This document shows positions 1 to 4,469 of a stretch of 4,469 bases of DNA, in pieces. Position numbers and translations under genes: made by a program. Below the pieces are notes generated by a model that saw nothing but the letters and a program-made list of their open reading frames with translations, did no database searches and had not been told where the DNA came from. Source of the stretch: a virus (Duplodnaviria; Heunggongvirae; Uroviricota; Caudoviricetes). Location: the IMG/VR virus record IMGVR_UViG_2526164596_000006. One strand, 5' to 3'. The number at the start of each line of letters is the position of its first letter. Position 1 is the stretch's first letter.

Positions 1-1571
1 ACGGTCTTCGCTGGTATGGCATCCGCACGGTGGAGCCTCACCATGACGGCACCGTGCACTGGCATATGATGGTCTTTGCTCATCCGGAAGAAATCGACAG
101 CATCGTGGCCATCACCCGCGATATTGCCATTCAGGAAGACCGCCACGAGCTGGGCAATGATATTACTCCGCGCTTTAAGGCGGAGTATGTCGACGGCTCA
201 AAAGGCACACCAACCAGCTATATCGCGACCTACATCGGAAAAAACCTGGACAGCCGGGCCGTGGATGGCATCGACCCGAAAACAGGCAAACCACGCGTTG
301 ACCACGAAACCGGAAAATCAATGGCCGAGAGCGTGGAACGCGCCATCGGCTGGGCGCGCCTTCACCGGGTCCGCCAGTTCCAGTTCTTTGGCATTCCCTC
401 CCGTCAGGTGTGGCGTGAACTCCGCCGCCTTGCCAGCCAGATGGCACGCAGCCCGGAAGGCCCGCAACGGCTGAAGGATGACGCAATGGATGCGGTTCTT
501 GCTGCCGCTGATGCCGGGTGTTTTGCCACCTACATTGAAAAACAGGGTGGCGTACTTGTTCCGCGCAAGGACTACCTGATTCGCACCGCCTACGACCTCG
601 CAGATGAGCTGAACGATTACGGCGAACAGAGCGTACAGATTTACGGGATCTGGTCACCACTCATCGGGGAATCCTCCCGTGTGTGCACGCATCCGGATAA
701 CTGGAAGCTGGTAAGACGTAAACCGGAAGCGGAAGACAGCGCCCGCGAAAATGGTTTTGACCTTCAGGGCGGCCCTGCCGCCCCTTGGACTCGTGGCAAT
801 AACTGTCCCCGTGTACAGGAAACGAACAACAACGGGGCAGAACAGCCGGAAGAACGGCCAGCACCGTGGCCGCAGCTCCCTGATGGCGTTGAAGTGAACG
901 AATGGATGCGCTCACTGAAACGGCACGAACGCCGGGCGCTGATGCGTTCGCTTCATGATAAACAGGCAAAAAACAGCAGTGATGAAATGCAGAGCTGGAC
1001 ACAGAGCCGCAAACAGCAGCGGCCTTTGCCTGATAACCACGAATTACTCGCTAAAGAATGGCGGGAGTCTGCCGAATCTCTCGGCCTGCATATCGGTGAA
1101 CAGCAGATGCAGCACCTGTTACGGGGCGGCAGCCTGTACGTTGACGGCAGCATCATTGCACCGCAGGGATTTGAAATTGTACGCAAACCGGATACCCGAC
1201 CGGACAGCCGGATCACGCAGCTCTGGCAGCGCCTGAGCCGTAACCACGGCGTAAGCAGCACGGAGATCCGCCATAACCCGGTCGCCGGCTATCTGGCACA
1301 GCTGGGGGCATCAGACCACGAAGCCGCCGCACGCCTGGCATCCACACTTCAGCAGGACCAGAACACCATGAAAACCCCCGTTACCGTGCTTTCTGACATG
1401 CTGCGCGCCATCCGTGACGCAGAGCACGCACAGAGAATCAGTGAAACCACTGAACGCGCCCGCCGCAAAGCAGACCTGCTGCGGGGTAGCCTGACCAGTG
1501 GAAACAAAAAACAGACAGAAACGGGATTCACAAAACCCGTAAATGAGCAAAAAACGCGCCGCGATATATGA
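1..1571 (+). CDS. A: Replication initiation endonuclease, P2 gpA family (HUH rolling-circle nickase); 5' end lies outside the window, about 522 C-terminal codons present
   Basis: The frame beginning at nt 3 is open to the window edge; the ORF track's start at 30 is a GTG, so the true start is upstream. Stop is TGA at 1569-1571. The translation has HWH (nt 57-65) followed about 50 residues later by SYIATYIGK, with Tyr codons at 219-221 and 231-233 (Y-x3-Y), the catalytic arrangement of P2/186 A-type nickases. A long hydrophilic C-terminal region follows. Confidence 0.8.
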   Translation, partial: GLRWYGIRTVEPHHDGTVHWHMMVFAHPEEIDSIVAITRDIAIQEDRHELGNDITPRFKAEYVDGSKGTPTSYIATYIGKNLDSRAVDGIDPKTGKPRVDHETGKSMAESVERAIGWARLHRVRQFQFFGIPSRQVWRELRRLASQMARSPEGPQRLKDDAMDAVLAAADAGCFATYIEKQGGVLVPRKDYLIRTAYDLADELNDYGEQSVQIYGIWSPLIGESSRVCTHPDNWKLVRRKPEAEDSARENGFDLQGGPAAPWTRGNNCPRVQETNNNGAEQPEERPAPWPQLPDGVEVNEWMRSLKRHERRALMRSLHDKQAKNSSDEMQSWTQSRKQQRPLPDNHELLAKEWRESAESLGLHIGEQQMQHLLRGGSLYVDGSIIAPQGFEIVRKPDTRPDSRITQLWQRLSRNHGVSSTEIRHNPVAGYLAQLGASDHEAAARLASTLQQDQNTMKTPVTVLSDMLRAIRDAEHAQRISETTERARRKADLLRGSLTSGNKKQTETGFTKPVNEQKTRRDI

Positions 1572-1620
1572 AGCGCGCATAAAACAGGCAAAAACGGGAT
1601 TTAAAAACCCCGTAAACGAT
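1507..1620. repeat. Two ~36-bp imperfect direct repeats, each with an internal inverted repeat (ACGGG-N9/10-CCCGT), with A-tracts spaced about every 10-12 bp; candidate parC-like centromere/operator for the downstream parMR
   Basis: Copy 1 at 1507-1543 (aaaacagacagaaacgggattcacaaaacccgtaaa) and copy 2 at 1581-1616 (aaaacaggcaaaaacgggatttaaaaaccccgtaaa). Copy 1 overlaps the last codons of gene A; copy 2 is intergenic, about 30 bp upstream of the parM start. Position matches where parC sits in type II partition loci. Confidence 0.4.
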
Positions 1621-1647: not shown

Positions 1648-2607
1648 ATGAAAATTTGTATCGACGACGGCTCCACCAACATCAAGCTGGCATGGACTGA
1701 GAACGGCGAACGCCGCAACGCCATCAGCCCGAACAGCTTCAAATCGGAATGGTCTGCGCCGTTCGGTGGCATGCAGCCCGCAAACTACATGCTTGATGGC
1801 GTGCGCTATGGTTTTGATCCGGTCAGCGATCGATTTGTCCAGACGACCGACACGCAATACCAGTACAGCGATGTGAATGTAATTGCCATTCATCACGCGC
1901 TGGTCAAATCAGGCATCACGCCACAGGAGGTGGATGTGGTTGTCACCCTGCCACTGAGCGAGTATTTCGACACAAACGCACAGCCGGACATGGCCAACAT
2001 CAACCGCAAAAAAGCGAACGTTATGCGCCCGGTGGAGTACCAGAACGGCGAAGCATTCACTATCCGTAACGTGCGGGTTATGCCTGAATCCATTCCGGCT
2101 GGCTTTAAGGCACTGGCTGACATGAGTCCGTTTGAATCCCTGCTGATTGTGGATTTGGGCGGAACCACGCTGGATGTGGCAAAGGTTCAGGGGCAACTGG
2201 CAGGTATCAGCCAGGTGTTTTGCGATCCACACGTAGGCGTTTCTCTGATGGCCGATGCCGTACTGTCGGTGATGGCCACTAACGGTATGCGCACCAGTCA
2301 CCACATCGCCAATACCATTATCGAACATCGCCATGATGAAGCCTGGCTGCGCCAGCACATCCACAATGACGCGCATTACGACAGCCTGATGGCGGTTATT
2401 CGTGAAAAGGAAGAAACACTGAAACAACGAGTGATCCGCGCGCTGGCGGGTTTTTCGGGTTACGGGCGGGTGATGGTTGTCGGTGGCGGGGCGGAGATTG
2501 TGGCACCCGCTATCCGCGAAGCCTGCGGAGTTAATGCGACTTTCATCGCGGACGGGGTGCCACAGTTTGCTCTGGTTAATGGGCTGTACGCAATGGACAA
2601 GGAGTAA
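1648..2607 (+). CDS. parM: ParM/StbA-family actin-like plasmid segregation ATPase (319 aa)
   Basis: ATG at 1648 preceded by AAGGA at 1635-1639. The N-terminus MKICIDDGSTNIKLAW...ISPNSFK...YQYSDVNVIAIHHAL closely parallels R1 ParM as I recall it. All three actin-fold nucleotide-binding motifs are present: IDDGSTNIK (phosphate 1), IVDLGGTTLDV (phosphate 2), MVVGGGAEIV (adenosine). Length matches ParM (~320 aa). Confidence 0.9.
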   Translation: MKICIDDGSTNIKLAWTENGERRNAISPNSFKSEWSAPFGGMQPANYMLDGVRYGFDPVSDRFVQTTDTQYQYSDVNVIAIHHALVKSGITPQEVDVVVTLPLSEYFDTNAQPDMANINRKKANVMRPVEYQNGEAFTIRNVRVMPESIPAGFKALADMSPFESLLIVDLGGTTLDVAKVQGQLAGISQVFCDPHVGVSLMADAVLSVMATNGMRTSHHIANTIIEHRHDEAWLRQHIHNDAHYDSLMAVIREKEETLKQRVIRALAGFSGYGRVMVVGGGAEIVAPAIREACGVNATFIADGVPQFALVNGLYAMDKE

Positions 2608-2611
2608 ACCA

Positions 2612-2923
2612 ATGACGACACCAACCAGACGGATAAGTTTCTATCTGAAGCCCGCCGCCGTCAAGAACGAAGGCGAAGCATGCACCTGGCTGGACAGCCT
2701 TACACCAGAAGCCCGCAAAAGCGGCCAACGTGTGGCTTTTCTGGCCGGGCTGGCACTTCTGAAAATGAATCCGGCAGAGGCTTACCGACTGGCTGCATGG
2801 GCTGACGATGAGGCGTTATCAGTGACACAAACCAGGACAGAACGCCCCGCGTCACAGCCAGTACCAACCTCACAGATAACCAGTCGGATGGCCGGAAATA
2901 TCAGGGCGTTATTTCCCGAATAA
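2612..2923 (+). CDS. parR: ParR/StbB-family centromere-binding adaptor (103 aa)
   Basis: ATG at 2612 sits 4 nt after the parM stop, with AAGGAG at 2599-2604. The ORF track's longer version starting at 2477 overlaps parM and is rejected. RRISFYLKPAAVKNEGEACTWLDSLTPEARKSGQRVAFLAGLALLKMNP parallels R1 ParR (RRTIAFKLNP...LDSIPQGERSRLNRAALTAGLALY, from memory), and the C-terminal IRALFPE matches ParR's LRSLFPKE. Gene order parM then parR is canonical. Confidence 0.8.
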   Translation: MTTPTRRISFYLKPAAVKNEGEACTWLDSLTPEARKSGQRVAFLAGLALLKMNPAEAYRLAAWADDEALSVTQTRTERPASQPVPTSQITSRMAGNIRALFPE

Positions 2924-2928
2924 CACAA

Positions 2929-2952
2929 CATCAGGGCGCATCCGCCCTGATG
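2929..2952 (+). promoter_or_regulatory. Perfect 10-bp-stem hairpin (4-nt loop) between parR and the downstream gene pair; possible attenuator, processing site or operator
   Basis: catcagggcg (2929-2938), loop catc (2939-2942), cgccctgatg (2943-2952). A third copy of the arm, atcagggcg, lies at 2900-2908 inside the last codons of parR, allowing an alternative pairing. The downstream tract is only weakly T-rich (actttaat), so this is not a textbook intrinsic terminator. Confidence 0.4.
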
Positions 2953-2986
2953 ACTTTAATCCGGGAACATAAACAAGGGGGACACA

Positions 2987-3319
2987 ATGCAACACATTGA
3001 CAGAGAAAAAGCGCAGCGACTGATTGAGCGGATGGAAGCGCTGGCGAAAGAAGAAAATGTCAACATCCAAAAAATAGCTGAATGTGGCCAGATAGTTCTT
3101 CGTCGTGAAAAAGACCTCAAACAACTGATGTCTGGCGAAACCAGCAAAACATGGACTTCAGGCGAGGAGACGATTTATTGCAGCTTCTGCAATAAATCTC
3201 AGTACGAAGTCACAAAGGTGATTGCCGGACCGTCTGTTTGCATCTGCAATGAGTGCGTGGATTTGTGCAATGAAATTATCAGGAGAGAAGTGACAGACAA
3301 AAAGGGAAAAAACGCATGA
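2987..3319 (+). CDS. Small protein with a C-terminal ClpX-type C4 zinc-binding domain (110 aa); N-terminal ~60 aa of unknown function
   Basis: ATG at 2987 with a strong SD (AAGGGGG at 2975-2981). Residues [40 protein letters not shown] align almost residue-for-residue with E. coli ClpX N-domain [40 protein letters not shown] (from memory), conserving all four Zn-ligand Cys (CSFC ... CNEC). No AAA+ module follows; the protein ends 15 residues later. Confidence 0.8.
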
Positions 3320-3654
3320 ACAGAAAACAAAAACAAGAGTTGAAATACTTTTTACGTAAAGAAATTGCCAGGCTTGAAGATGCAGAATCACAATCATCAG
3401 AAATTCCGTTCGGAATGGATATCAACGACGCCCGTATGCTCCAGGCATACCGCATAGCTCAGGCTGCACTACAGGCAAAACCGTCAGATGGACTGGTTAG
3501 AGCAGTACGATTCTATGAACTGGTAAAGCGTGAGAATCCGCCAGCCGAAACCGGAGCATGGAAAGACGCTGTTGACTGGGTACTCAAAGAGGCTTGTCAG
3601 GTTGTAAACACTGGCATCAAAGGAGACCTAGCCCAGCCTGCATCAAAGCTATAG
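3316..3654 (+). CDS. Hypothetical protein (112 aa), translationally coupled to the ClpX-zinc-finger gene
   Basis: Its ATG (3316-3318) overlaps the upstream TGA (3317-3319) as ATGA; SD-like AGGGAA at 3304-3309. Predicted to be largely helical and charged ([24 protein letters not shown]...). I recognise no domain. Stop is TAG at 3652-3654, followed directly by a terminator. Confidence 0.6.
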
Positions 3655-3664
3655 AAATGAGCCA

Positions 3665-3692
3665 AAACGCCCTCTTCCAGGGCGTTTATTTC
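3665..3692 (+). terminator. Rho-independent terminator closing the parM-parR-zf-hyp cassette
   Basis: aaacgccct (3665-3673), loop cttcc, agggcgttt (3679-3687), then a T-rich tail (atttc). It starts 10 nt after the gene-4 stop. On the minus strand the hairpin is followed by TTTTGG, so it may act in both directions. Confidence 0.7.
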
Positions 3693-3694
3693 AA

Positions 3695-3721
3695 TGCACA
3701 ATAGTGCACAAATTTGCACAA
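3695..3721. repeat. Three direct TGCACAA heptamers at exact 10-bp phasing (a fourth copy at 3787-3793)
   Basis: TGCACAA at 3695-3701, 3705-3711 and 3715-3721, followed by a T7 tract. Helical phasing suggests a binding site for a multimeric DNA-binding protein, for example in packaging/cos recognition or regulation. Confidence 0.5.
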
Positions 3722-3785
3722 TTTTTTTGAACGACTTTTTGCCCTTCCGGCCCGCGTGGCGGCTGGATCCGTCAGGGATCCGTGC

Positions 3786-3818
3786 GTGCACAAAAAAACG
3801 CGTTTTTTCTGCGCGCAG
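3786..3818. repeat. Cluster of perfect palindromes in the cos-proximal intergenic region
   Basis: gtgcac (3786-3791), a 16-bp perfect palindrome aaaaaacgcgtttttt (3793-3808), and an abutting 10-bp perfect palindrome ctgcgcgcag (3809-3818). Preceded by ggatccgtcagggatcc (3765-3781) and a GC-rich stretch containing gcgtggcgg (3754-3762), which partly resembles the 5' part of the 186/P2 cohesive-end sequence as I recall it. Confidence 0.5.
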
Positions 3819-4092: not shown

Positions 4093-4121
4093 GCCGGGGC
4101 ATAAATTTTTTATGCCCCGGC
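4093..4121 (-). terminator. GC-rich hairpin about 25 nt downstream of the portal-like gene stop; candidate terminator or packaging-region structure
   Basis: gccggggcat (4093-4102), A/T loop aaatttttt, atgccccggc (4112-4121); the stem can extend to 13 bp. The flanking sequence is not strongly U-rich on either strand, so terminator function is uncertain. Confidence 0.4.
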
Positions 4122-4145: not shown

Positions 4146-4469
4146 TCAGGATGTGGGCTGGGTGTCTAACAGTGCGTAAGGGTTAAAGCGGATCACCTTT
4201 TCGCCAAGCCAGTCATTGATGTGCTTCATGGCCTCCATGACGGGCATCAGTTCGTTAATTGCGTAAACCCGCGCGGCCTTCTCCACATCACCAAACGCAC
4301 TTTTTTCGCCCGGCATCGCCCCCATCAGTTGCGGCGGAACGCGGTGCGCAGCCAGCACATCATCACGGGATGCCGCCTTAACATTCATGAACTCATCCTT
4401 TGCGGTGATCTGCTGGAACGGCAAAATTTGCACCCCCTCTTTGCCCCCGTTGGGCGCATGGATGAGCAC
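4146..4469 (-). CDS. Phage portal protein, P2 gpQ-like, C-terminal fragment (N-terminus beyond the window end)
   Basis: The minus-strand frame is open to the window edge (first in-window codon GTG); stop is TGA (plus-strand tca at 4146-4148). AHRVPPQLMG resembles the (F/G)VPPxLLG motif I recall from Phage_portal-family proteins. Convergent orientation and position after the A-distal non-coding region match P2 gene Q. Confidence 0.55.
   Translation of the reverse strand: MLIHAPNGGKEGVQILPFQQITAKDEFMNVKAASRDDVLAAHRVPPQLMGAMPGEKSAFGDVEKAARVYAINELMPVMEAMKHINDWLGEKVIRFNPYALLDTQPTS

Follow-up and report, generated by a model that had tools for sequence, protein, structure and literature searches.

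The locus and its phage setting

The DNA considered here, a window of 4,469 nt analysed over its whole length, is the gpA–gpQ cargo hotspot of a P88-like prophage (Xuanwuvirus, P2-like). It holds a candidate centromere (parC), the partition genes parM and parR, a hairpin directly after parR, and a cassette with a ClpX-type zinc-finger gene (gene 3) and orf112 (Table 1). ParR is a protein of 103 aa that ends in …GNIRALFPE, and the N-I-x-x-L-F-P-E pattern at its C-terminus is preserved even in an allele with just 52% identity. PADLOC and Pfam searches of the cargo recovered no known defence family, and the ClpX zinc finger is the only domain found.

A putative partition system has been reported at this hotspot in about one-quarter of P2-like phages (Rousset et al. 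2022; PMC9122126). The literature searched on the P2-like hotspot makes no mention of a boundary hairpin, a terminator, or parM, and a literature search on Xuanwuvirus or P88 returned nothing useful. The P2 reference has no comparable hairpin after orf91, and its hotspot genes old and tin run leftward, towards gene A.

Table 1. Features of the parM–parR–cassette region, in window coordinates
Feature	Position	Strand	Details
Candidate parC	1505–1619		42-nt repeat pair upstream of parM; ACGGGATT…AACCCGT repeats
parM	1648–2607		Upstream of parR; PF06406/PF21523
parR	2612–2923	+	StbB/ParR-like partition adaptor; Pfam PF10784 Plasmid_stab_B, E = 4e-24
First copy of the arm	2900–2908	+	ATCAGGGCG; parR codons Ile-Arg(AGG)-Ala, 13 nt before TAA
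Predicted outer helix	2913–2967	+	UUCCCG (2913–2918)/CGGGAA (2962–2967); MFE structure, weak evidence
parR stop codon	2921–2923		TAA
Spacer, stop to stem	2924–2928	+	CACAA, 5 nt; pi = 0.013
5′ arm	2929–2938	+	CATCAGGGCG; contains the second copy (2930–2938); pi = 0.034
Tetraloop	2939–2942	+	CATC; pi = 0.40, six variants in relatives
3′ arm	2943–2952	+	CGCCCTGATG; core 2943–2949, pi = 0.054
Swappable cassette	2953–3694	+	Homology to other-cargo relatives broken
Ribosome-binding site	2975–2982	+	AAGGGGGA, within the 34-nt cassette leader
Gene 3 (ClpX-type zinc finger)	2987–3319	+	PF06689 zf-C4_ClpX
orf112	3316–3654	+	
Two-way terminator of the cassette	3665–3687		
Start of right-hand backbone flank	3695–3730	+	TGCACAA ×3 at exact 10-bp spacing (3695, 3705, 3715)
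Weak hairpin with T7 run	3704–3719 (hairpin)		Right backbone flank; terminator-like, 3704–3728

A perfect hairpin directly after parR

The original prediction placed the 9-mer ATCAGGGCG at 2900–2908 and again at 2930–2938, with its complement CGCCCTGAT at 2943–2951. These coordinates are exact, and the stem that they imply is present but is one pair longer than described, namely, a perfect 10-bp stem (2929–2952) with seven GC pairs and a 4-nt loop that starts 5 nt past the parR stop codon. The local stem has an energy of about −17 to −18.4 kcal/mol and dominates the fold ensemble with pair probabilities of 0.9–1.0.

The hairpin is non-random, far beyond chance. The window contains three distinct perfect hairpins of at least 10 bp versus 0.023 per dinucleotide shuffle, and the fold z-score at the hairpin is −2.8 on the plus strand and −3.8 on the minus strand. 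A search with the covariance models of Rfam 15 over the entire window, at E-values up to 1, gave no match. The predicted outer helix encloses both the parR stop codon and the hairpin and is specific to this cassette type; a CGGGAG variant of its 3′ side retains a U.G pair. Other intergenic hairpins without a U-tract follow genes in the same phage genome, e.g., after the major capsid gene.

Conservation among relatives

A 93-nt query (the 3′ end of parR plus the hairpin) matched 240 E. coli records at 251 places, and a 30-nt query with the hairpin gave the same totals, with a median of one per genome. Identity across the 93-nt segment is 100% in E. coli O55:H7 CB9615, UTI89 has a related copy, and the P88 genome has a single copy of the hairpin. 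P88-like prophages as a whole are represented by about 1,700 E. coli records and also occur in other genera. A REP/BIME or other dispersed repeat was considered and rejected, as the element occurs once per prophage and nowhere else; the remaining IMG/VR pattern matches are chance occurrences inside GC-rich coding sequence. A search for distant relatives with ParM in genome contigs recovered only three near-identical loci, tblastn with ParR against phages and plasmids recovered only P88-like prophages, and a ParR search of viral contigs recovered only relatives with at least 93% identity. With only close relatives recovered by ParM and ParR, deep covariation could not be derived.

Within this set, the arms vary less than the 4-fold synonymous sites of parR (pi of 0.094), while the loop and the downstream flank (pi of 0.49) are far more diverse than the arms. 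The 3′ arm thus appears as a conserved island complementary to the 5′ arm. Nearly all of the diversity of the 5′ arm comes from one A/G site that retains a G.U pair, and the arms persist with six loops (CATC, TATC, AGTT, GGTT, AACT, and TATT) and at least six different downstream sequences. The few relatives without the hairpin have either a 7-nt deletion in the 5′ arm or a replacement directly past the stop codon. Palindromes may in general stay perfect via replication template-switching, without selection on RNA.

Three one-sided changes preserve pairing: A-to-G at 2930, C-to-T in the 3′ arm, and C-to-T at 2929. All are G.U or U.G pairs on the plus strand and would be A.C mismatches on the minus strand. 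Two related prophages have different hairpins at the same site, CCAGGGCGG-AAA-CCGCCCTGG and CGGGGCG-CACTGT-CGCCCCG, whose changes look compensatory. In the main hairpin type, no pair is altered on both sides and covariation measures are not above shuffles; the support for an RNA structure is therefore conservation together with the three wobble changes (p ~0.125), not covariation.

The same variation bears on whether the palindrome is a protein-binding site on double-stranded DNA, such as a second ParR centromere or operator or the site of another regulator, with the copy in parR as a third half-site. An inverted repeat that is perfect over 10 bp on both sides of a 4-bp spacer, and direct copies exactly 30 bp apart (three helical turns), would suit such a site. 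However, the arms range from 7 to 10 bp in length, and variants of the compensatory type alter the sequence while keeping the pairing, which is typical of a structure rather than of a sequence-specific operator. In addition, the third half-site is not conserved, and the palindrome does not resemble the repeats of the candidate parC upstream of parM, making this reading highly improbable. Nor does the hairpin look like a type II centromere, the palindromes of the candidate parC being unrelated to CAGGGCG.

The edge of a swappable cassette

Homology with relatives that have other cargo stops at 2922–2924, 2939, or 2949–2952 (the last in several cassette types) and resumes at 3695. On the right, the boundary is exact: in each of more than 15 cassette types, the cassette runs up to the first TGCACAA and no further. 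By these alignments, the hairpin is the last backbone element before the swappable cassette.

Neither a scan nor inspection by eye found a promoter-like site in the 3′ end of parR or in the stretch from the hairpin to gene 3; with no promoter between them, the downstream genes appear to be co-transcribed with parR. Where the first cassette gene is co-oriented with parR, its start lies at a constant distance past the parR stop codon (+61 to +64 nt), behind a shared leader. All five co-oriented classes have a GC-rich hairpin without a U-tract directly after parR, four of them this hairpin and one a variant. Among classes with a convergent first cargo gene, the hairpin is intact in only one of four.

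The concentration of breakpoints in and just past the hairpin (2939 and 2949–2952) raises the question of whether it acts solely as DNA, i.e., as a palindrome that is a preferred break, insertion, or recombination point, kept perfect by template-switching, with no role in RNA. Several traits fit this reading: (i) loops have been exchanged between cargo types (L030 has the CATC loop with MSEIN cargo), (ii) the AGTT and AACT loops are exact inversions of each other, (iii) a near-empty variant derives from a deletion from AGGGCG of the 5′ arm, (iv) MSEIN-type cassettes end with a second CAGGGCG…CGCCCTG hairpin 2 nt from the right boundary, and (v) CAGGGCG occurs five times in the window versus 0.83 expected. 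Breakpoints, however, are expected just past any last conserved element, and further ones lie at the parR stop codon (2922–2924) and inside the leader (2978). There is also only a single such hairpin per genome, and no associated recombinase: none lies within the interval, and those annotated in P88 are only the phage integrase and a DNA invertase. Moreover, the hairpin tracks cargo orientation, which is unexpected for a pure DNA break site. A purely DNA-level role is distinctly unlikely.

Terminator properties by strand

The hairpin falls within the range of terminator stems (GC-rich, at least 5 bp long, and closed by a loop of 3–8 nt), and the two strands differ in what follows it. On the plus strand, there is no U-tract past the stem (tail ACTTTAATCC) and no terminator is called. 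On the minus strand, the hairpin is called terminator-like, with 10 pairs, seven GC pairs, and the tail TTGTGTTATT, and is the top match of the scan. In a d'Aubenton-Carafa-type score, which is not calibrated for modern energy parameters and serves here solely to compare strands, the plus strand has −29.8 and the minus strand +9.9, the sole positive value in the window; the clear terminator at 3665–3687 was given a negative value, its A/T arms having been taken as part of the stem.

An efficient plus-strand terminator that closes the early/parMR operon and leaves the cassette to independent expression would agree with a strong GC-rich stem directly past the last backbone gene and with a tail, ACUUUAAU, that has four U in eight. 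It is nevertheless very unlikely, given the lack of a U-tract and the score; the tails of variants (CTCTCCACC and CCACCAATC) have still fewer T, the cargo genes begin 34 nt on without a promoter-like site, and the backbone has a terminator-like hairpin with a T7 run past the cassette.

The reverse complement, on the other hand, appears to have the anatomy of a true intrinsic terminator. The CACAA spacer and the AATAA of the stop region together make up the U-rich tail UUGUGUUAUU of the reverse-strand form. In three relatives with a convergent cargo gene (L115, L154, and L014), a leftward gene of 198 aa ends 16–38 nt away from the hairpin, the intervening DNA has no other strong hairpin, and the reverse form appears to be used as a terminator there.

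The element could on this basis be a minus-strand terminator or insulator in general, which stops leftward transcription from the hotspot (or across cos, from the late P–Q operon) before it becomes antisense to parR, parM, and gpA. The high conservation of the spacer that forms the U-tract and the leftward transcription of old and tin in P2 are further points in its favor. The cassette of the window, however, has no leftward gene and no leftward promoter-like site and closes with its own two-way terminator. Nor does the distribution over cargo classes fit, with the hairpin present in all co-oriented classes and in only a quarter of the convergent ones. The wobble changes suit the plus-strand RNA and not the minus strand, and neither side of the variant hairpins in L008 and L131 has a T-rich tail. 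As the main function, minus-strand termination is unlikely.

The copy of the arm inside parR

The original prediction gave most weight to a translation-sensed switch, in which either copy of the repeat pairs with 2943–2951 and a ribosome terminating on parR masks the first copy, thereby coupling the downstream pair of genes to parR translation. The two mutually exclusive stems are formally possible but not comparable. Taken alone, the local stem has −18.4 kcal/mol and the alternative −13.6 kcal/mol; the constrained MFE values are −32.9 and −26.8 kcal/mol (about 6 worse for the alternative), and the pair probabilities are ~1.0 and ~1.1e-4. Kinetics favor the local hairpin as well: the second copy is already made when the 3′ arm is transcribed, and the loop that it closes has 4 nt rather than 34 nt.

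The copy in parR is not conserved. It reads ATCCGGGCG, with Arg encoded by CGG rather than AGG, in 95 of 110 relatives, which are closely related and recombining, so that counts of loci are not counts of independent events. The resulting C.U mismatch (86% of relatives) lowers the alternative stem to −8.9 kcal/mol. The AGG allele is confined to the other 15 relatives, spread over at least two to three parR backgrounds, a distribution that, along with the exact match of the three 9-mers, is among the points that speak for a switch.

Statistically, the evidence for the third copy is much weaker than that for the hairpin. The window contains four exact 9-mers repeated within 60 nt versus 1.35 expected. 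For an exact third copy no more than 60 nt from a given arm, p is ~3e-4; for the 8/9 match, which is the ancestral and majority state, p is ~0.013 before correction for two arms and two orientations.

The predicted output of the switch is absent too: in all the states tested, gene 3 has its ribosome-binding site and start open to the same extent, with unpaired values of 0.71 for the wild type, 0.73 for an arm mutant, and 0.73 for the CGG allele. Selective masking also does not hold. Because the stem lies 5 nt past the stop codon, a terminating ribosome is expected from known footprints to touch it, which would suit a switch. However, a ribosome with TAA in its A site presumably spans roughly 2906–2935. 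Such a footprint touches the first copy no more than it does the foot of the second copy and the local hairpin and thus cannot choose between the stems; in folding with a mask around the stop codon, both copies were lost.

With an alternative stem populated at ~1e-4 and an unchanged gene 3 ribosome-binding site, the proposed switch is rejected; it also has no plus-strand U-tract to form a terminator, and it is extremely improbable. The duplicated arm of parR is not conserved and is no genetic switch. The copy is protein-coding sequence (N-I-R-A) with an 8/9 match to the arm and without a function of its own, constrained by the retained ParR C-terminus (NIRALFPE). A single synonymous CGG-to-AGG change turned 8/9 into 9/9 in a minority lineage.

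A different origin of the repeat was also considered, in which the second copy is the ancestral ParR C-terminus displaced by a 30-nt insertion (in frame, it reads N-I-R-A-H-P-P-stop). This was rejected: the LFPE end is kept in the 52%-identical ParR allele, no relative without the 30 nt was found, and the 21 nt following each copy are unrelated.

A proposed intercistronic stem-loop at the end of the partition module

The best explanation, to which about an even chance is given, makes the hairpin part of a polycistronic parM–parR–cassette mRNA, as a stem-loop between cistrons that has no U-tract and stabilizes or attenuates the parMR segment. It has the traits of an intercistronic stabilizer: a stable hairpin 3′ of a cistron, within what appears to be one transcription unit, and no terminator tail. 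The stem-loop belongs to the conserved backbone, as the end of the parM–parR module, and lies at the left edge of the gpA–gpQ cargo hotspot. Since the plus strand has no U-tract, RNA polymerase would pass through the stem into the promoterless cassette.

At the RNA level, the stable stem (about −18 kcal/mol) would then separate the fate of the parMR segment from that of the downstream cargo, most likely as a barrier to 3′-to-5′ exonucleases and/or as a weak pause or attenuator. Should the AU-rich spacer be cleaved, the hairpin may additionally protect the 5′ end of the resulting cassette RNA. Where the first cargo gene is convergent, the reverse complement, with its U-rich tail, appears to be used as an intrinsic terminator. 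The structure, its pattern of conservation, its place at the mosaic boundary, the lack of a plus-strand U-tract and of a promoter ahead of the cargo, and the uncompetitive and unconserved alternative stem are shown; both the read-through and the stabilizing or attenuating role are inferred. The fallback of the original prediction, in which RNA processing or partial termination at the hairpin sets how much the partition genes are expressed relative to the downstream module, would be compatible with this explanation and comes close to it.

A more elaborate proposal holds that the region is a dedicated expression-and-exchange adaptor, in which the backbone-encoded stem-loop and the fixed leader with its ribosome-binding site would feed promoterless defence or cargo genes from a ParR-autoregulated parM promoter, and the palindrome and the 10-bp-spaced TGCACAA repeats of the right edge would form the preferred recombination site for cassette swapping. 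The chance of this is slim. Some cassettes are themselves bounded by CAGGGCG…CGCCCTG hairpins.

The intercistronic stem-loop is an ordinary kind of element and opens no new mechanism. Its use lies in delimiting the variable cassette of P88-like prophages, with a left edge at 2952/2953 and a right edge at 3695, which aids the cataloguing of cargo and defence genes in the gpA–gpQ hotspot. Co-oriented cassettes are implied to lack promoters of their own, their expression probably depending on read-through from parMR. A cassette cloned with only its immediate upstream sequence could stay silent and give false negatives in defence screens. The striking triple repeat, finally, is a worked example of a pattern that reduces to coding constraint plus one synonymous mutation.

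Comparison with known systems

As in the leader-peptide attenuators of trp and pyrBI, there is a stop codon near the stem, and because one arm is repeated, two pairings that formally exclude each other are possible. The differences are that the alternative pairing is ~6 kcal/mol worse, populated at ~1e-4, and not conserved, that there is no terminator U-tract, and that the repeat lies in a real gene for a 103-aa protein rather than in a leader peptide.

Like integron attC sites, the hairpin is a palindrome at a cassette boundary, imperfectly conserved overall but with conserved inverse cores, and MSEIN-type cassettes have the second such hairpin at their 3′ end. Unlike attC, it comes with no integron integrase, extrahelical bases, or R/L boxes, its 10-bp stem is perfect and unbulged, and most cassette 3′ ends are ordinary terminators. 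The likeness is a resemblance only.

The gpA–gpQ (old/tin, “TO”) hotspot of P2-like phages occupies the same locus, from the replication gene A to the portal gene Q beside cos, and its cargo is highly variable as well. In the P88-like phages, parMR differs in acting as backbone, and the variable segment begins only past the hairpin.

Rho-independent terminators have the same anatomy of a 10-bp stem with seven GC pairs and a tetraloop, followed by UUGUGUUAUU on the minus strand, and in L115-type relatives, the hairpin is flanked by convergent genes, with the stop codon of the leftward one 16 nt away, as for a two-way terminator. In the sense of parR, however, there is no U-tract, and both neighbors in the window are co-oriented.

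Intercistronic stem-loops that stabilize and decouple parts of an mRNA were reportedly described by Newbury, Higgins, and colleagues in 1987, e.g., the REP hairpins between malE and malF of E. coli; the puf operon hairpins of Rhodobacter are further cases. The present hairpin differs in that it is not a REP, is not dispersed, occurs in one copy per prophage, and lies at a mosaic boundary with swappable downstream genes. Like them, it is stable and GC-rich, has no U-tract, and directly follows a cistron in a polycistronic unit, and by analogy, polymerase read-through, a block to 3′ exonucleases, and a higher ratio of upstream to downstream RNA would be expected here as well.

Genomic context of the hairpin

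The window is the gpA–gpQ variable hotspot of P2-like phages described by Rousset et al. 2022 (PMC9122126), who remark that a putative partition system is present there in about one quarter of them. Along its entire length the window shares 97% identity with Escherichia phage P88 (Xuanwuvirus, Peduoviridae), and over segment 1600-3700 it matches a chromosomal prophage of E. coli O111:H21 at 100% identity.

Features of the gpA–gpQ window
Feature	Position	Remarks
gpA, P2-type replication endonuclease gene, 3′ part	ends 1571	
42-nt direct repeat	1505-1546, 1578-1619	spans gpA stop
parM	1648-2607	Pfam StbA_N/ParM
parR	2612-2923	Pfam Plasmid_stab_B
9-mer, first copy	2900-2908	in parR codons
CAGGGCGTTATTTCC	2902-2916	parR end
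5′ arm of parR hairpin	2929-2938	second 9-mer copy, 2930-2938
3′ arm of parR hairpin	2943-2952	9-mer complement, 2943-2951
Gene 3, small, ClpX-type C4 zinc finger	2987-3319	
12-bp palindrome	3172-3198	GATTTATTGCAG CTT CTGCAATAAATC
orf112	3316-3654	no family match
Two-way terminator of cassette	3665-3687	
CAGGGCGTTTATTTC	3678-3693	3′ arm and tail of cassette terminator
TGCACAA repeats	3695, 3705, 3715	region 3695-3721; also 3787-3793
13-bp hairpin	4093-4121	GCCGGGGCATAAA TTT TTTATGCCCCGGC
gpQ portal gene, 3′ end	4146-4469	minus strand

The two 42-nt repeats (83% identity, 73 nt apart) lie directly upstream of parM, each with the palindrome ACGGGATT...AACCCGT, and are a good candidate for the parC centromere and the ParR-regulated promoter. 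Both copies are terminator-like on the − strand. The E. coli PLSDB record NZ_CP148288.1, entered as a non-mobilizable plasmid, is as long as a P88-like phage genome (34,461 bp) and is 98% identical to the parMR region of the window over 76% of the query. This record is consistent with parMR letting P88-like phages persist as plasmids, and it could alternatively be an assembly of excised phage DNA. A contig labelled as the Gram-positive Vagococcus sp. (NZ_JBQPOM010000071.1) also contains this enterobacterial prophage (ParM identity 97%), which probably reflects contamination or a mislabelled assembly.

Structure of the hairpin and the duplicated arm

The three 9-mers of the original prediction, two copies of one arm and a single complement, are exact at the positions claimed. 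The second copy and the complement form a 10-bp local stem, CATCAGGGCG with CGCCCTGATG, that begins 5 nt after the parR TAA and encloses the loop CATC. The window contains three perfect hairpins with stems of 10 bp or more and 3-8-nt loops, versus 0.023 per dinucleotide shuffle, and the hairpin region folds better than its shuffles on each strand (z = −2.8 on the + strand and −3.8 on the − strand). Four exact 9-mer repeats spaced no more than 60 nt apart were counted versus 1.35 expected. For one particular arm, the probability that a third copy falls by chance within 60 nt is ~3e-4 if exact and ~0.013 with one mismatch permitted. The third copy is far less remarkable than the hairpin. Rfam returned no match. 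Elsewhere in the window, the 12-bp palindrome lies within the zinc-finger gene and spans the first CxxC of the ClpX-type finger, and the 13-bp hairpin, immediately past the end of the portal gene, has a clear U-tail on neither strand; both are perfect.

The original prediction proposed that the two copies give mutually exclusive stems and that a ribosome terminating parR, by masking the first, could couple expression of the downstream pair to parR translation. This switch fails on both thermodynamics and output. The local stem is favored over the alternative in stem energy alone (−18.4 versus −13.6 kcal/mol), in minimum free energy with each stem forced (−32.9 versus −26.8 kcal/mol), and in ensemble pair probability (0.9-1.0 versus 1.1e-4). 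In folds with masked segments, the alternative stem prevails solely where masking falls on the second copy. A ribosome whose A site is on the stop codon would be expected to span approximately 2906-2935, and such a footprint touches the 3′ end of the first copy and the 5′ end of the second alike. Unpaired fractions of the gene 3 RBS and start codon are equivalent in the wild type (0.71), a 3′-arm mutant (0.73), and the CGG allele described below (0.73), and no U-tract follows the stem on the + strand. The switch model is rejected.

A set of 110 related loci was assembled from IMG/VR and from GenBank phage and plasmid-borne prophage records, each including the 3′ end of parR and 150 nt or more downstream. 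In 95 of them the Arg codon of the first copy is CGG, and in 15 it is AGG. The first copy thus usually reads ATCCGGGCG, an 8/9 match that introduces a C·U mismatch into the putative alternative stem, whose energy in this majority allele is only −8.9 kcal/mol. CGG occurs in all more divergent parR alleles; AGG is carried by the clade of the window and by a minimum of one or two further parR backgrounds, a recurrence that could result from recombination or templated “quasi-palindrome correction”. The first copy codes for N-I-R-A of the ParR C-terminus and is set by the protein, because the motif N-I-x-x-L-F-P-E-stop is retained even in a ParR allele of only 52% identity. Given this coding constraint and the CGG majority, the triple repeat in its exact form is a derived state, synonymous and in the minority.

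Conservation of the hairpin

Across 63 distinct haplotypes, selected only by the 5-nt spacer after the parR stop, pi is 0.094 at 4-fold synonymous sites of parR, 0.013 in that spacer, 0.034 in the 5′ arm, 0.40 in the loop, 0.054 in the core of the 3′ arm, and 0.49 in the next 11 nt. The 3′ arm, whose sequence is complementary to the 5′ arm, therefore stands as a conserved stretch between a highly variable loop and a highly variable flank. The same arms occur with six loops (CATC, TATC, AGTT, GGTT, AACT, and TATT) and at least six unrelated downstream sequences, and 92% of cells are paired across 20 distinct variants. Among these variants, which all come from close and recombining relatives, no two-sided pair change was found and covariation measures do not exceed shuffles; the case for the hairpin is therefore one of conservation, not covariation. 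One-sided changes that retain pairing are of three kinds, all G·U/U·G on the + strand and A·C on the − strand, a weak hint of + strand RNA (p ~0.125). Two related prophages have different hairpins at the same position with apparently compensatory changes, CCAGGGCGG-AAA-CCGCCCTGG (U-A to C-G) and CGGGGCG-CACTGT-CGCCCCG (A-U to G-C), which are putative homologues of the parR hairpin.

A dispersed repeat is rejected: a 30-nt hairpin query finds 251 places in 240 E. coli records, totals identical to those of a parR-linked 93-nt query, and P88 has a single copy. The remaining IMG/VR pattern matches are chance occurrences within GC-rich coding sequence.

Cassette boundaries and cargo

Similarity to relatives with other cargo stops at 2922-2924, 2939 or, most commonly, 2949-2952 and starts again at 3695 in more than 15 cassette types; the swappable cassette of the window is therefore 2953-3694. 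The hairpin sits at this mosaic boundary. The clustering of breakpoints at its palindrome is compatible with both a recombination or insertion site, which is improbable, and a more ambitious “adaptor” reading, which is slightly more improbable still. On the same side stand (i) the loop AACT, an exact inversion of AGTT, (ii) a near-empty variant produced by deletion from the 5′ arm, (iii) a second CAGGGCG...CGCCCTG hairpin that closes cassettes of the MSEIN cargo type 2 nt from the right boundary, and (iv) the over-representation of CAGGGCG in the window (5 versus 0.83 expected). However, breakpoints are expected just past any last conserved element, and a dedicated recombinase is absent.

The MSEIN-type hairpin, CAGGGCGAT-AATCGCGC-ATCGCCCTG, lies within the last 30 nt before the TGCACAA boundary (e.g., in loci L198, L127, and L203), shares the 7-nt core of the parR hairpin, and lacks a U-tract. 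The first TGCACAA is the sharp right-hand boundary common to the more than 15 cassette types; three copies at exact 10-bp spacing are followed by a run of seven T and could constitute a protein-binding array, e.g., for terminase/cos or ParR. Relatives of the L115 type also have TGCACAA immediately after the parR hairpin, and the sequences suggest an original empty site composed of hairpin and TGCACAA repeats. CAGGGCGTTATTTCC and CAGGGCGTTTATTTC match at 15/16 positions with one indel and form a direct repeat flanking the hairpin plus cassette; possible origins are coincidence, a composition typical of terminators, and a relic of cassette acquisition.

The C-terminal part of orf112 (3479-3626) moves widely: genes annotated as ‘hypothetical’ match it at ~88-93% nucleotide identity, both in many E. 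coli plasmids and in unrelated phages (T7-like podoviruses, lambdoid phages, and 78-134-kb phages). In locus L008 (IMGVR_UViG_2721755643_000003, 1964-3120), parR is interrupted by two ORFs resembling IS3-family transposase genes, and what is left on the right-hand side comprises just the final ~120 nt of parR, the variant hairpin, and a 381-aa cargo gene.

Predicted transcription across the hairpin

The + strand tail, ACUUUAAUCC, is poor as a U-tract, and those of other variants are worse. A scan found no promoter-like site before gene 3, and for co-oriented first cargo genes of different families the distance from the parR stop to the gene start is fixed at +61 to +64 nt, with a common leader, GAACATAAACAAGG(G/A)G, in front. 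Together, these features argue for read-through of the stem by RNA polymerase and for cargo that would be co-transcribed with parMR. A GC-rich hairpin without a U-tract directly follows parR in all five classes of co-oriented first cargo gene; of the four classes whose first gene is convergent, just one has the hairpin intact.

Read on the − strand, the hairpin is followed by a proper tail, UUGUGUUAUU. In this orientation it ranks first among the terminator-like sites of the scan, and no other hairpin in the window scores above zero as a terminator. Relatives of the L115, L154, and L014 types have a leftward 198-aa gene whose stop lies 16-38 nt from the hairpin, the intervening stretch containing no second strong hairpin, and there the hairpin very probably acts as a terminator; the P2 hotspot genes old and tin are likewise transcribed leftward. 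The window's cassette, in contrast, has no leftward gene and ends with its own two-way terminator, so − strand termination is ranked as a secondary or ancestral property and is unlikely as the primary function.

Taken in combination, the wobble changes, the variant hairpins, the read-through evidence, the association with cargo orientation, and similar hairpins in P88 (which has further intergenic hairpins without a U-tract after genes, e.g., after the major capsid gene) favor an intercistronic RNA element. Such an element would decouple parMR from the cargo, either by blocking exonucleases or by weak attenuation, or by both. This reading is near the fallback of the original prediction, a boundary, processing, or attenuation element, which is plausible. 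The hairpin is of an ordinary kind, a new example among stem-loops of the intercistronic or terminator-like type, and its interest lies in its place at the edge of a cargo hotspot.
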